From the NCBI RefSeq assembly GCF_963921235.1, contig NC_086108.1, positions 63,676,001 to 63,740,000 of the forward strand: a stretch of 64,000 nt of DNA. Reading direction: 5' to 3'. This DNA comes from Mobula hypostoma (taxonomy: Eukaryota). The position numbers were made by a program, and so were the translations under genes. How positions within the stretch are numbered: the first letter of the stretch is position 1; each line of letters opens with the position of its first letter. The notes below the pieces were generated by a model. The model saw only the letters and a program-made list of their open reading frames with translations, was not told the DNA's origin and searched no databases. Positions 57,011 through 62,830 of the stretch are shown here, one piece after another.

Positions 57011-58378
57011 CTCCCTCATTAATTTTAACAATTAATGGTATTGGGTTCAATTTATTAAATTTTACATACTTGAGGAGTGGATGAGGGAAAAGCTGTTTTT
57101 GGCTTGTGTCAGTGTCCTCCTGCAGGACGCTCTGTATAGCCAGGTGACTCGCAACATGCTGCCAGCCCTGGTGGGATGACTAATCCATCTGCTGGCAGGT
57201 CATATTTCTGTGAGCCAAGGGCCAGATGGAGTTTGAAGGGCCTTAATGGAGTAGCAAGCATGGTCTCCTGTATTCAAATGGGATTACCAAATTGTGTTTT
57301 AAACTTTATTTCAAAAAATGTGTAAATTAATTTAAAGAAACACGTGAATGTGGACTTTACATAAAATTGACTTTGAATTTTTAAAACACTACTTACATGC
57401 TCTTGAACAATTTCTAAATGTATGATGACTGGAGACCTTTAGAAAAAGTGGTAAGTCAACATAATGGTCAGAGTGTAGGGCCTGAGGTTCTATCACTTGC
57501 AGCCTAGTCACCAATAGTGACTCCGGGGTCTAGAATGGGAGATCAGGTGTGTTGGTCTCGGACCTCCAGCATATCTTGTACATCTGCATGGCAATGCACC
57601 GGTGCAAGAGTTTAAACTGCACCTGATGTGAATATTGCCATTGGTTAGCTGTTCTCCATGGAACAGATGATCCATCCAGATAACAAACAGTTTTGGTGCT
57701 CGAGACGTGTGAAAAGTTGAAAATTATGTTTAATGTATCCTAAGTGGCCCTTTTTGTCCACTGCCGTTTATTTAGAATGTGCACAGCTTGCTGAAACTTA
57801 TTTTTCCAATATAAATCATAATAAAAATAAAATAAAACTGCTGGAAACCCTCAGGTCAGACAGCATCTATGGAAAGAGAAATAGCTAACTGGGAAAGAGA
57901 GAAAACAAGATAGTTTCCATTTTAGAGCAGGTGGTGGAAGAGTTAGCTTAGAGCAAAGAGAATAACTGATACTACAAGACCCCAATGACTTAAACTGGCA
58001 GGTGGAAGCACATTATGATTTTTATCTGCATCATGTGTTACTAATAGCAAAACCATTGGATATGCTTGGCAGATCAAATCAGCAAGAGAAAACTGAGCCA
58101 AAATGATGATAGACAGAAATCCCCAGTTCTAATACAGACAAAGGGAAAGTGAGTTACATACAGTTAGAGATTCAATTTTGAGTATGGAAAAAAGATGAGA
58201 TGTTGTTATTCAGTCTTGAGTTTACTCTAGTTTTAATAACACAGGAGGCCACAGACAGGACAAACTGGGAGTGGGATAGGTAGGCAGGAAACTGGAAGTA
58301 GCAAGTCTAATACATGCAACACACATCAAAGTTGCTGGTGAACGCAGCAGGCCAGGCAGCATCTGTAGGAAGAGGTGC

Positions 58379-58414
58379 AGTCGACGTTTCAGGCCGAGAC
58401 CCTTCGTCAGGACT
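58379..58414 (-). ncRNA. Minimal hammerhead ribozyme motif (PLE)
   Basis: Reverse complement is identical to 4586-4621. Confidence 0.8.
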
Positions 58415-59075
58415 AACTGAAGGAAGAGTGAGTAAGGGATTTGAAAGTTGGAGGGGGAGGGGGAGATCCAAAATGATAGGAGAAGACAGGAGGGGGAGGG
58501 ATAGAGCCAAGAGCTGGACGGGTGATAGGCAAAAGGGGATACGAGAGGATCATGGGACCGCTTTGCTGAACATCTACACTCTGTCCGCCAGAGAAAGCAG
58601 GATCTCCCAGTGGCCACACATTTTAATTCCACATCCCATTCCCATTCTGACATATCTATCCACGGCCTCCTCTACTGTAAAGATGAAGCCACACTCAGGT
58701 TGGAGGAACAACACCTTATATTCCGTCTGGATAGCCTCCAACCTGATGGCATGAACATCGACTTCTCTAACTTCCGCTAAGGCCCCACCTCCCCCTCGTA
58801 CCCCATCTGTTACTTATTTTTATGCACACATTCTTTCTCTCATTCTCCTTTTTCTCCCTCTGTCCCTCTGAATATACCTCTTGTCCATTCTCTGGGTCCC
58901 CCCCCCCCCCGACTTTCTTCCCGGACCTCCTGTCCCATGATCCTCTCGTATCCCCTTTTGTCTATCACCTGTCCAGCTCTTGGCTCCATCCCTCCCCCTC
59001 CTGTCTTCTCCTATCATTTTGGATCTCCCCCTCCCCTTCCAACTTTCAAATTCCTTACTCACTCTTCCTTCAGTT

Positions 59076-59111
59076 AGTCCTGACGAAGGGTCTCAGCCTG
59101 AAACGTCGACT
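59076..59111 (+). ncRNA. Minimal hammerhead ribozyme motif (PLE)
   Basis: AGTC-CTGACGA-AGGGTCTCAGCCT-GAAA-CGTC-GACT. Confidence 0.8.
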
Positions 59112-60062
59112 GCACCTCTTCCTACAGATGCTGCCTGGCCTGCTGCGTTCACCAGCAACTTTGATGTGTGTTGCTTGAATTTCCAGCATCTGCAGAATTC
59201 CTGTTGTTTAAGTCTAATACATCTATCAGTAACAAGGATGGCAAAATGCATCCCTGTAATAGTAGATTTACATTGCAGCTGCTTTGAAACTTAGCAGGAT
59301 ATGAATCAAAGCGAAGTCTGTAAATGGAGCAAATCAAAGTAATTTGAAGCATGTTAATTGTTAACTCTCTTTTTGTACAGTGTGAGCCCCACAGAGATTT
59401 CAAATTCATGGCATAAAAATTCATGCTTTCTTGACTATGATCAGTGAAATAATCTAAGGCTAGAAACATCACACAGCAGGCCACAACAGCATTTATCTAT
59501 ATAATGGAAGTTTAATTGCACTTGTCACATCATTTAGTTTACAATTTGACATTAGTTGTGGAGCCTAAAAGATAACAAGGGTTTATAAAACATTTATAAG
59601 TTGCATAGATTTATGTATGACTGGTTTAAAAACTATTGACAGTATTATTCTAAAATATCTTATTGCACACAAAACACTGAATAGCACACAGAAATTAAAG
59701 CAGAAAATATTGGGAATACTCAGCAGGTCAGGCAGCATCTGTGGAAGATGAAACAGTTTATGGTTTAGGTTGACAAATTATTAAAGATGAAGAGTCTTCA
59801 GCCTGAAATATTGACATTTCATCTTTCTGTAGATGCTCCCTTACCTGAGTTTTTTCTAGCATTTTCTACTTTAGAGTCATAGAACACTACAACACAGAAA
59901 CAAGCCCTTCAGCCTTCTCATCCATGCCAAACTACTAATCCGACTAGTCCCTTCAAATGCACGCAGATCATAGTCCTTCATGCTCTTCACATTCATGTGC
60001 CTATCCAAACTTCCTTCAAATCTTGAAATTGAACCCGCAATCGCCACTTCTGCTGGCAGCTT

Positions 60063-61813
60063 AATGCTAGGTGGATTCTTAAGGGGCTGGAAAGGTTGAT
60101 GAGGTGGGCAAGGATATCATTTAAGCCTGCAAAATCAAGATCTGTAGTTCTGAAGAAGGGGTGAGTACAGGAGAAATTTTGTTTCTCTATTGAGGACATT
60201 CCAATTCCTACCATCACAGAGAACCCTGTTAAAAGTCTTGGGAAGATTGTTGATGCAACATTCAGAGATAAGGCGGCAATAAGAAACACCTGTGGGGAGT
60301 TTGAATAATGGTTGCAAAAGGTTGACAGGACCGGCCTTCCAGGGCGGTTTAAGGCATGGATTTACCAGCACGGTTTACTACCAAGAATCCTCTGGCCCCT
60401 GCTTCTCCATGAGTTTCCAATTTCCACTGTTGCTGAATTAGAGAGGGTAGTCAGCCGGTTCCTGTGAAGATGGCTGTGTTTACCAAGGAACATCAGCAGC
60501 ATCGCTCTATATGAGAATAACTGCAAACTGAGACTCCCCCTGAAATCCATCCAAGAGGAGTTCAAGGTTTTGCGAGCAAGAGAGGTGCTGCAGTTCTGGG
60601 AATCTTCAGATCCAAAGGTTGCCCGAGCAAGAGTGGCAGTGAGAACTGGAAGAAAGTGGAGACCAGTGGCTGCAGTTGAAGAAGCTGAGGTGAGACTGCG
60701 CCACAAAGTGCTGTTGGGGGGCAGCTGCCAAGGGAAGAGTGGGATTTGGAAGCCTTGAAGTCCCCCATTTTGACAAAGTGCAAGGGAAAGAGTGATGAGA
60801 ACTGGTCCAGAATGAAGTAAGGGCAGCTGTGGAGGAGGAGAGGACCAGCAGAGCAGTGGCAATGAAACAGCAAGGAGCCTGGACCAAATGGGAGCAGGTG
60901 ATCGAGCAAAAGATCATGTGGAACGATCTCTGGAAGGTGGATCCACACTGCATCAAGTTCCTTATCCAGGCAGTTTATGACATCCTTCCTAACCCATCCA
61001 ACCTGCACTGCTGGGGCCCTGCAGAACGACCAGCTTGTCCCCTCTGTGAGAAGACTGGTACGCTAGAGCATCTTCTGAGCTGCTGCCCCAGAGCTCTTGC
61101 CAATGGCCGTTATCGGTGGTGGCATGATCAGGTCCTCCAGACAAATGCTGAGACAATCAGCAGCACCCTTAACATCTGCCAGAAAACAAGTCCAGTCAAG
61201 AATATCATCTGCTTTGTCAAAGAGGGGGAAAGACCAACAGAACACCAGAAAGCAATAGGGTTGCTCTTTGCTGCGCAGGACTGGAAGCTAAAAGCAGACC
61301 TGGGAGAACAGCTGCAGTTTCCTCCCCACATCACAGAGACTACATTGTGTTGTGATCCGACTCATCGAAGCATGTTCTTATGCTTGAGTTTACCGTGCCA
61401 TGGGAAGAATGCATGGAGGAGGCCTACGAACGGAAAAGAGCCAAGTATGAAGCTCTGAAGAACAACTGCCAAAGAAGAGGCTGGAGAGCAAAGTGTTGGC
61501 CTGTGGAGGTTGGGTGCTGTGGCTTTGCAGGTCAGTCGCTCTGCAAAGAATACAATGCACTTGGAATCGTGGGAGAGAGAAGGAGAGCCATTTCTACCAC
61601 CACAGATGCAGCAGAGAAAGTGTCAAGGTGGCTCTGGATAAAGAGGGCAGATCCGTGGGCTGCTGCTAGGGCACAGGCCGTGGTCTGATCAACCCCGGCT
61701 GGGTCGCCTGGGCGAGGGTGTATGATGTTGAAAGACCCGAAATACCTGACGACCCCAGGTAACATCACTGATGATGTGCCCTAGCTTAGCATCATGCAGA
61801 TGTTTCTTTAAGA
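60063..61813 (+). mobile_element. 5'-truncated Hero (R2-group, restriction-like endonuclease) non-LTR retrotransposon, decayed
   Basis: WIYQHGLLPRILWPL, RTGRKW, QQGAWTKWE, CCHC finger CPLC...HLLSCC, RWWHDQVL, LEFTVPWEE...KRAKY and PVEVGCCGF; ORF stop at 61688. Confidence 0.9.
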
Positions 61814-62830
61814 ACATTTCCTCTTTCTGTGGATGCTTCCTGACCTGAGATTTTCCTAACATTTTCTGCTTTAGAGTCATAGAACACTACCAAACAGAAA
61901 CAAGCCCTTCAGCCTTCTAGTCCATGCTAAACTATTAATCCGACTAGTCCCTTCAAATGCACACAGATCATAGTCCTTCATACTCTTCACATTCATGTGC
62001 CTATCCAAACTTCCTTCAAATGCTGAAATTAAATCCACAATTTCCACTTCTGCGGGCAGCTTGTTCTACACCCTCACCACCCTCTGCGTGAAGTTTTTCC
62101 CCCATATGTTCCCCTTAAACATTTCACCTTTCACCCTTAACCCATGAGCTCTAATTTCAGTGTCACTCAACCTGAGTGCTTCTATTTACCTTATCTATAC
62201 CATTCATAATGTTGTATTCCTCTATCAACTTTCCTCCCAATCTTCTACATTCTAGAGAATAAAGTTCTAACCTATTCAACCTTTCCCTATTACTCAAGTC
62301 CTCAAGTCTTTGCAGCATCCTTGTAATTTTTCTCTGCACTTTTTCAATCTTATTCATACATTTCTTGTGGGTAGGTGACCAGATATGCACACAATACCCC
62401 AAATTAGGCCTTACCAATATCTTATACAACTTCAACATAACATCCCATCTCCCGTACTCAATATTTGATTTATAAAGGCCAATGTGCCAAAAGCTCTCTT
62501 TGTGGTCTTATTACCTGTGATGCCACTTTCAAGGAATCATGGATTTATGTTCCCAGATCCCACTGTTCCACCGCACTCCTCCATGCCCTACTGCTCACCG
62601 TACAAGTCCAACCTTGATTTGTCCTCCCAAACTGCTTCACCTCACACTTGTCTGCACTAAATTCCATCTGCCAGTTTTCAGGCCATTTTCCCAGCTGGTC
62701 CATCCTGCTGCAAGGACTAATAGCCTTCCTCTCTGTCCACTACACCCTCAGTCTTGGTGTTATCTGCAAACTTGCTGTTCCAGTTAACTACATTATCATC
62801 CAGGTCATTGACATAGATGACAAACAACAA
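61814..62830 (-). mobile_element. CR1 3' fragment (its first 249 bp duplicate 59814-60062)
   Basis: LYKILVRPNLGYC and SKFADNTK peptides; direct alignment of the two copies. Confidence 0.85.

Follow-up and report, generated by a model that had tools for sequence, protein, structure and literature searches.

The last codons of the open reading frame (ORF) and the beginning of the 3' untranslated region (UTR) of a Hero-like retrotransposon of Mobula hypostoma contain what is, on the comparative evidence given below, a real, conserved and ancient RNA built around a hammerhead core. The element lies in the window analysed here, a stretch of 64,000 nucleotides (nt) from contig NC_086108.1, and all positions below are those of the window. 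The best reading of this feature is a putative self-cleaving or hammerhead-derived RNA, and we think it probable that the ORF end and 3' UTR start of Hero-clade elements encode a doubly pseudoknotted hammerhead of about 105-125 nt, which would cleave itself after residue H17 (61722|61723 in the window). Self-cleavage is the most likely activity because the pattern of selection looks specific to catalysis and because relatives with the same ring of strands are active ribozymes.

A first-pass annotation of the window had placed three hammerhead core strands and four helices at 61701-61780, after the stop codon, and every one of these strings was recovered where it had put them: GGGTC (61701-05), CCTGGG (61707-12), GGGTGT-A (61716-22), TGATGTT (61723-29), GACCC (61734-38), GAA-ATACCT (61739-47), CCCAGG (61754-59), AACATCA (61761-67) and CTGATGA (61768-74). 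The core indeed lies inside that span, but the full feature extends from about 61665 to 61785 and starts within the ORF. The four helices are real, but two more had been overlooked, here called helix X and hairpin P0. Likewise, the pairing of stem II was correctly given, but its GGGUC strand is not contiguous with CUGAUGA, the gap being bridged by X and P0. The parts of the feature, in 5' to 3' order, are:

61665 to 61675, + strand: 5' strand of helix X, within the last ORF codons (partner 61775-61785; 11 Watson-Crick pairs in the window)
61677 to 61699, + strand: hairpin P0, 61677-83 with 61693-99 (one mismatch at 61681 in the window copy)
Loop of P0, + strand: UCUGAUCAA, containing the stop codon and the palindrome UGAUCA
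61686 to 61688, + strand: ORF stop codon TGA, in the loop of P0
61701 to 61705, + strand: stem II strand 10.x, GGGUC, with G10.1 first (partner 61734-61738)
61707 to 61712, + strand: 5' strand of helix Pb, the "extra helix" of the first-pass annotation, tying the far ends of stems I and II (partner 61754-61759)
61713 to 61715, + strand: CGA, 5' side of the kink-turn-like internal loop between Pb and stem III, opposite GACGAC at 61748-61753
61716 to 61721, + strand: stem III strand 16.x, GGGUGU, with U16.1 last (partner 61742-61747)
61722, + strand: H17 (A), with the cut predicted at 61722/61723 by analogy with hammerheads
61723 to 61730, + strand: stem I strand 1.x (partner 61760-61767), extendable to 8 pairs through G61730-U61760
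61734 to 61738, + strand: stem II strand 11.x, GACCC, with C11.1 last
61739 to 61741, + strand: G12, A13 and A14 of the hammerhead core (A15.1 is 61742)
61742 to 61747, + strand: stem III strand 15.x, AUACCU in the window (C at 61743 in most of 30 aligned family copies)
61754 to 61759, + strand: 3' strand of helix Pb
61760 to 61767, + strand: stem I strand 2.x
61768 to 61774, + strand: core residues C3 to A9, CUGAUGA
61775 to 61785, + strand: 3' strand of helix X, beginning directly after A9

The layout was worked out in divergent relatives of the element. The C-terminal 335 residues of its protein, aligned with seven database relatives, were used to scan metagenome contigs, where 269 stretches matched the pattern and 183 of these encode a relative; the best 80 of the 183 were kept as loci (34-73% protein identity), and 61 of the 80 have the stop codon and at least 60 nt beyond it. 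When the 3' UTRs of these relatives were read by eye, CUGANGA and CGAAAC were seen to be kept, while the flanking helices change in step, with variants such as GGCCC/GGGUC, GACUC/GAGUC and GAUGA/UCAUC in stem II, and GUGGU/ACCAC and CCAGG/CCUGG in stem I. It was the relatives that revealed helix X, formed by the bases right after CUGANGA and the last ORF codons, and P0, a hairpin between X and stem II that holds the stop codon in its loop.

With a strict six-helix descriptor, 28 of the 80 loci were matched in the forward direction, against none of their 80 reverse complements and none in 20 shuffles of all 80. The window and 23 descriptor-positive loci were aligned with MAFFT (24 rows, which had been picked for pairing), and in this alignment 94.1% of cells are paired (66.0% in shuffles), 30 of 37 pairs are changed on both sides, and the covariation score is 0.738 versus 0.220, a value reached by none of 500 shuffles and falling to at most 0.135 with slid partners. 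A covariance model holding only the nested helices X, P0, Pb and III was then run against the 80 loci, the window and two copies from the ray's own genome. At E<=1 there were 64 matches, every one of them on the ORF strand, and a match is present in 58 of the 61 loci whose sequence continues past the stop codon. Two of the matches were dropped, a second, weak one in L087 and that in L064, which has an internal deletion, leaving 62 distinct rows, from metagenome contigs and the ray's own genome, in which 92.5% of cells are paired (62.0% in shuffles) and the covariation score is 0.746 versus 0.205.

Stems I and II are absent from the model and were read only by position, taking five bases at each of three points: directly downstream of H17, directly ahead of CUGANGA and directly ahead of GAAA. 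For stem I, complete pairing is seen in 51 of the 62 rows and at least four of the five pairs in 59, with 21 distinct variants and a mean of 4.71 pairs in cis versus 2.53 when partners are swapped between rows. For stem II, all five pairs are present in 45 rows (17 distinct fully paired variants) and the mean is 4.55 pairs in cis versus 3.01 with swapped partners; 92.5% of its cells are paired, and four of its five pairs are changed on both sides. In helix X, all eight scored pairs are changed on both sides across lineages. The covariation that the first-pass annotation had called for is thus present in all four of its helices, across 62 divergent relatives, and in the two that it had overlooked.

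The order UH, GAAA, CUGANGA (in the window at 61721-22, 61739-42 and 61768-74) is the same in 62 of 62 rows, and the stem II partner of strand 11.x is found 5' of the cleavage-site block in every row that could be parsed. Among the 28 parsed rows, there is no nucleotide between A9 and helix X in 21, 0-2 nt between 10.x and Pb (0-1 nt in 27), 0-2 nt between Pb and 2.x in 25 (0-3 nt in 27), and 2-8 nt between stems I and II (2-5 nt in 23), while stem III is joined to stem I by the single nucleotide H17.

The core itself is conserved in this unselected set of rows. CUGANGA is kept in 53 of the 62 rows, with only N7 varying (U in 33, A in 8, C in 7 and G in 5), and its nine exceptions are seven loci with a broken ORF, L058 and L081. 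The last of these has an open ORF and was scored as ACGAUGA, which by eye looks like a misaligned CUGACGA. GAAA is kept in 57 rows, G10.1 in 57, C11.1 in 53 and U16.1 in 61, and U16.1 forms a U-A pair with A15.1 in 60 (the other two being one unpaired and one gap). H17 is U in 24 rows, C in 22, A in 16 and G in none, in rows that fall into 31 clusters at 80% identity; the probability of meeting no G by chance is 2e-5 (31 independent draws, G = 0.29 of the motif). Among the 29 loci whose C-terminal ORF is open, 27 have an intact motif, versus 17 of the 31 in which the ORF is broken (Fisher p = 0.001), the two open-ORF exceptions being L081 and L058.

As aligned here, the core matches the hammerhead consensus in every particular, one free position and one forbidden base included, and comparison of the rows shows the six helices and the full hammerhead core to be under purifying selection. 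The pattern of this selection looks specific to catalysis, since H17 is free among A, C and U but is never G, only N7 is free within CUGANGA, and G5, A6, G8 and G12 are kept though the helices do not need them. As in hammerheads, the core strands are directly flanked by stems I, II and III, which covary; in contrast, A9 runs into helix X, and G10.1 is not contiguous with it but is found about 70 nt upstream, where classical hammerheads have at most 1-2 inserted nucleotides.

The first-pass annotation had taken types I-III as the known hammerhead wirings, a view that is out of date, as the reverse order has been published and validated in vitro as type SGC (PMC10085705, available text). There, Eckert et al. 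(2023, NAR 51:2850) divide the hammerhead core into three blocks, of which S is the site, G is GAAA, and C comprises CUGAnGA and the stem strands next to it, and describe natural non-circular permutations, types SGC, CSG and GCS. Type SGC has the order S, G, C found here, two pseudoknots, a linker between stems I and II of typically three nucleotides, and a fourth helix that ties the other sides of these stems. According to the same text, hammerheads of the three types cleave in vitro at the predicted site, with all four stems validated by compensatory mutants, and type-SGC ribozymes work as single molecules in co-transcriptional assays. They come from environmental RNA of unknown hosts and, as far as the available text reports, none was found in the genome of a known organism except for one bacterial candidate.

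The Hero motif shares with type SGC the order of site, GAAA and CUGAnGA, the two core pseudoknots, the whole conserved core, the short linker between stems I and II and, as the fourth helix that connects these stems on their other sides, Pb. The earlier statement that this order needs pseudoknots was upheld. The differences are that the published CUGAnGA runs straight into its stem II strand, whereas in Hero this strand lies 5' of the site block; that the Hero RNA ends between A9 and G10.1 and is closed there by helix X and hairpin P0; and that an internal loop connects Pb with stem III. Moreover, the Hero copies are found in animal-type retrotransposons, and the published RNAs were cleaved in vitro, while the Hero motif is known from sequence alone. 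We do not file it as type SGC because block C is interrupted; judged by its strand order, it is a further opening of the same ring. This ring (S, G, 2.x-CUGANGA, 10.x, Pb and back to S) is shared with types SGC, CSG and GCS, and appears to be opened in Hero at a fourth place, inside block C.

Compared with the classical types I-III (Rfam RF00163, RF00008 and RF02275-7), the motif has the same C3-A9, G12-A14, A15.1-U16.1 and G10.1-C11.1, an H17 that is not G, and three stems at the core, but its strand order is the mirror cycle, without a simple three-way junction. The hammerheads of Penelope-like elements and retrozymes also place a hammerhead core on a retroelement, but those in the literature searched are classical motifs of type I or type III and lie in the terminal repeats of elements that are Penelope-like or non-autonomous, whereas Hero has a single permuted copy that overlaps the stop codon of an autonomous R2-group element. 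The 5' HDV-like ribozymes (HDV, hepatitis delta virus) of R2 and other non-LTR (long terminal repeat) elements resemble the Hero motif as predicted here in being self-cleaving RNAs with a double pseudoknot, in R2-group elements. They belong to another ribozyme class, lie at the other end of the element and have the task of releasing the 5' end from a co-transcript (PMC13580325, available text), and a Rfam scan of a full-length Hero copy (L046) gave no match to an HDV family. Finally, the protein-binding RNA of R2 3' UTRs is similar in its site, its pseudoknotted fold and its likely contact with the element's own protein, but no hammerhead core has been described for R2 3' UTRs in the literature searched. 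In that full-text literature, which takes in few subscription journals and stops short of the supplements to Eckert et al., no hammerhead was found linked to the 3' ends of Hero, Zebulon or other R2-group elements, and no earlier account of such a motif in Hero or non-LTR elements came to light.

The strands follow one another in the order X5', P0 (with the stop codon in its loop), 10.x, Pb5', 16.x, H17, 1.x, a short linker, 11.x, GAA, 15.x, Pb3', 2.x, CUGANGA and X3'. Helix X and hairpin P0 hold together the opened ends, A9 and G10.1. If the RNA is active, it would cut by hammerhead chemistry after H17, and helices X, II, Pb and III, which amount to about 28 pairs in the window copy, would then keep the pieces together. 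A ribosome that terminates would have to melt X5' and P0, since both are located in the last codons and the stop codon, so that folding, and hence cutting, would be coupled to the end of translation. We favour such a coupling of RNA fate to translation termination.

The internal loop that separates Pb from stem III may contribute to the geometry. The kink-turn consensus is a helix, a 3-nt bulge and sheared G-A pairs in tandem, with NNN-GA in one strand opposite GA, and kink-turns usually bind proteins and make a sharp bend. NNNGA follows stem III in 53 of 62 rows and GA directly precedes it in 37, some lineages having a bulge on the 5' side instead; in most lineages the loop fits this pattern and may be kink-turn-like. 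A sharp bend at this point would let Pb fold back from the distal end of stem III towards the distal ends of I and II. In the loop of P0, a 6-nt palindrome is present in 34 of the 62 rows in three versions that keep self-complementarity (UGAUCA in 28, UGGCCA in 3 and GACGUC in 3), which hints at RNA dimerisation through loop-loop contacts. UGAUCA is kept in this loop even where the stop codon is elsewhere (L047).

Several points weigh against self-cleavage. The benefit of cutting is unclear, as a cut here would part the ORF from the 3' end needed for target-primed reverse transcription. If 3' cleavage products were retrotransposed, copies should begin at 61723, but none of the 30 sampled copies (found with 61723-61814) does so, and their 5' ends are scattered (61706, 61699, 61697, 61683, 61661, 61571 and others). 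Nor was a cleavage-derived leader seen on the full-length copies examined, as the 3' fragments found upstream of them never start at 61723. Block C is interrupted between A9 and G10.1, a break that Eckert et al. assumed absent (PMC10085705, available text). In L058, which has an open frame of 614 codons, the core reads UUGAAGA, with C3 changed to U. The Rfam hammerhead models are silent, which is to be expected for such a wiring and bears out the earlier remark that standard descriptors would miss the motif, but which also means that independent model support is absent. Specifically, no ribozyme family matched window 60500-62500 at E<=10, the motif was scored by no family of Rfam 15 in 15 related loci at E<=1, and no retrotransposon 3' UTR family was listed in either scan. 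The closing of Pb onto stem III is presumed to be sterically feasible. The proposal of the first-pass annotation that the motif defines or presents the Hero 3' end found no support: the predicted cut lies 92 nt upstream of 61814, and since these 92 nt remain beyond the cut and are contained in all integrated copies, cutting does not make the 3' end.

The main rival to a cleaving ribozyme, to which we give an appreciable but clearly smaller share of belief, is a non-cleaving, hammerhead-derived scaffold. The fold would be what the Hero protein recognises in cis when it initiates target-primed reverse transcription, in the way that R2 proteins recognise their own 3' UTR, the core would be kept for its shape and its protein contacts, and the break between A9 and G10.1 would disable catalysis. 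Several of the points just listed speak for it directly, namely the interrupted block C, the open ORF of L058, the failure of any of the 30 copies to start at the cut site and the constant presence of the downstream sequence in integrated copies. The motif also lies where R2-group elements carry protein-binding 3' UTR RNA, and its kink-turn-like loop is of a kind known for binding proteins; R2Tg has been reported to bind a pseudoknotted RNA (PMC12222951, available text). What a scaffold accounts for poorly is the freedom of H17 to be A, C or U with G absent there from all 62 rows, and the retention of G5, A6, G8 and G12 with N7 as the sole free position of CUGANGA. Furthermore, the permuted relatives with the same ring are active ribozymes (PMC10085705, available text), and we retain self-cleavage as the preferred reading.

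Another alternative, which we regard as rather improbable, is that the helices are not all formed together. The RNA would then switch between a nested form (X, P0 and a long Pb-III hairpin) and forms with stems I and II, or the active species would be a dimer formed by kissing of the palindromic P0 loops. Stem I, stem II and the Pb/III pair all cross one another and so make three competing sets, and the palindromes of the P0 loop, with their three self-complementary versions, occur in 34 rows. Lunse et al. are said to have found in 2017 that small hammerheads of Penelope elements act as dimers. The very short linkers from 10.x to Pb, from Pb to 2.x and at H17 (1 nt) fit a single compact fold instead, the palindrome is missing in 28 of the 62 rows, and type-SGC ribozymes with the same crossings act as single molecules (PMC10085705, available text).

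Taken by itself, the window makes the motif only mildly unusual, and that it is more than chance was shown only by comparison with other copies. A scan for the proposed arrangement gave 2 loose matches among the 54 CUGANGA words of the window, and an arrangement of the observed strength (stem I at least 7, stem III at least 6 and stem II at least 5 pairs) was present in 5 of 150 dinucleotide-preserving shuffles. The minimum-free-energy fold of the region (-41.2 kcal/mol; z = -3.37 versus shuffles) is a different, nested structure. Its 12-bp stem pairs the cleavage-site strand with the 3' hairpin and was rejected as unconserved, with at least 8 contiguous pairs in 2 of 26 other lineages and none above shuffles. 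The own-genome copies are too alike to decide (28 used, about 92-93% alike; double-sided changes in only 2 of 41 RNAalifold pairs), and the nested fold predicted from them buries CUGAUGA in a hairpin. A competing 6-bp pairing in the window family, GGGUCG (61701-61706) with CGACCC (61749-61754), competes with stem II and Pb; it was not seen in other lineages, as read by eye, and the strict descriptor misses the window itself because it takes this pairing as the extra helix. The chance assembly of short motifs in a structured 3' UTR, which the shuffles and the picking of the motif from a reading of many windows might suggest, is extremely improbable and is refuted by the compensatory changes across loci (28 of 80, against controls at zero) and by the 64 model matches, all in ORF orientation.

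We tentatively go further and picture an active ribozyme that results from a fourth opening of the ring, inside the supposedly indivisible CUGANGA block, gated by the termination of translation, serving as a switch between messenger and retrotransposition template, and dimerising through its palindromic loop in many lineages; this whole picture is considerably less likely than self-cleavage as such. The gating would follow from the presence of the last codons and the stop codon in the closing helix and hairpin. If true, animal genomes would gain their first permuted hammerhead and R2-group retrotransposons their first hammerhead, as far as the literature searched goes, and a ribozyme candidate would be added at the 3' end of these elements. 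R2-group retrotransposons are now being engineered for gene insertion. The wiring order has so far been reported only for a few environmental RNAs, in 2023, when non-circular ribozyme permutations were first described, and the three core blocks were then assumed to be uninterruptible (PMC10085705, available text). The Hero motif would show this assumption to be too strict, with the ring openable also between A9 and G10.1, and searches with three-block descriptors would consequently miss members. It would also place a permuted hammerhead in a defined and abundant animal element, where its biology can be studied, and offer a compact, covalently braced hammerhead design. Even without cleavage, it would clearly exemplify a ribozyme fold that has been retained in a structural or protein-binding role. 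It should interest specialists of ribozymes and retrotransposons.

The host element was delimited as follows:

60065 to 61814, + strand: Hero-like (R2-group) non-LTR retrotransposon, a 5'-truncated and decayed copy, from own-genome match boundaries and ORF pieces
61789 to 61814, + strand: 3'-terminal hairpin (61789-93 with 61799-803) and the element end ...UAAGAA

The left boundary is the start of the own-genome matches, at query position 266 of 59800-61400, and the right boundary is at ...GTAAGAA, which in genomic copies is followed by unrelated flank or (GAA)n. The element is abundant in the 3.48-Gb genome, where its 3' end gave 1795 first-look candidates (40 of which were scored, at 91-93% identity) and the 5' part gave 47. 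Full-length copies are about 3.5 kb, counted from a common 5' boundary beyond which the 5' UTR extends some 45-90 nt further upstream, and their product has a zinc finger at the N terminus, a reverse transcriptase, a Cys-His motif and an endonuclease with the motif RPD..ELTVPWE..K..KY. The ORF pieces of the window copy contain a CCHC motif and the same RPD..ELTVPWE..K..KY signature. In the ORF pieces of L045 and L046 we find the layout of the HERO clade, a single ORF with the reverse transcriptase followed by the Cys-His motif and a PD-(D/E)XK-type endonuclease. RVT_1 and zf-RVT were detected in relatives, with RVT_1 at 63.8 bits in an intact, 69%-identical one (P0002).

The best named protein relatives (56-58% identity) come from teleosts and Branchiostoma, and include Takifugu Q76IN2, which we take to be HEROFr, and a Tetraodon polyprotein. 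HEROFr, HEROTn and HERO-1_BF have been catalogued from Takifugu, Tetraodon and Branchiostoma taxa (PMC2790886, PMC7650587), and the joint presence of reverse transcriptase, Cys-His motif and endonuclease in one ORF is given as defining the HERO clade (PMC3636483, PMC2790886), in the text available for these sources. As the nearest named proteins come from taxa with catalogued HERO elements, Hero appears a reasonable label for the element. The C-terminal tail of Q76IN2 (P0079; last 12 residues, ...DRPRLGRPSECV) resembles window 61689-61722 translated in frame past the stop, which suggests that the fugu element may have nearly the same P0, stem II, Pb and stem III at the nucleotide level.

In contigs from four public runs of four organisms, the summed depth over 61400-61830 peaks at 61700-61760, contigs bridge the cut site, and loose contig ends cluster before 61685 and behind 61742-61785. 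Given this depth peak and the clustering of loose ends around the core, the putative ribozyme core is the part common to several diverged families in other species. Three joints, each in a single contig, touch 61723 (61649>61723, 61723>61661 and 61723>61780); they are too weak and were not used, and contigs cannot show RNA ends.

A head-to-tail arrangement is seen at full-length copies, with a 3' fragment of another copy, ending in ...GTAAGAA, directly upstream of them (L037, L038, L039, L041, L043 and L044). These fragments vary in length, with starts at window-equivalent 61500 or earlier, 61619, 61656, 61734, 61754 and 61759. Such an arrangement would fit a reverse transcriptase that, at the 5' end of its RNA, jumps to another RNA's 3' end. 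In L024, two 3' ends were found about 1.5 kb apart. The 5' UTR contains a conserved unit of about 40 nt, once or twice per copy (about 866-955 in L036, with equivalents in L037-L044), formed by two small hairpins, CUGG..CCAG, then UGAC, then CCAG-GAAAGA-CUGG. The unit is also found behind 3' ends in L059, L060, L063 and L098, directly after the end of the previous copy, and shows apparent compensatory changes in distant lineages. A Rfam scan of three carriers of the 5' region or unit (L046, L059 and L060) gave no match. This unit may represent another structured RNA, located at the element's 5' end. Immediately upstream of the Hero copy, window 58222-59178 suggests an inverted repeat of several hundred bases, where the frames 58222-58671 (-) and 58771-59178 (+) have near-identical translations on opposite strands.

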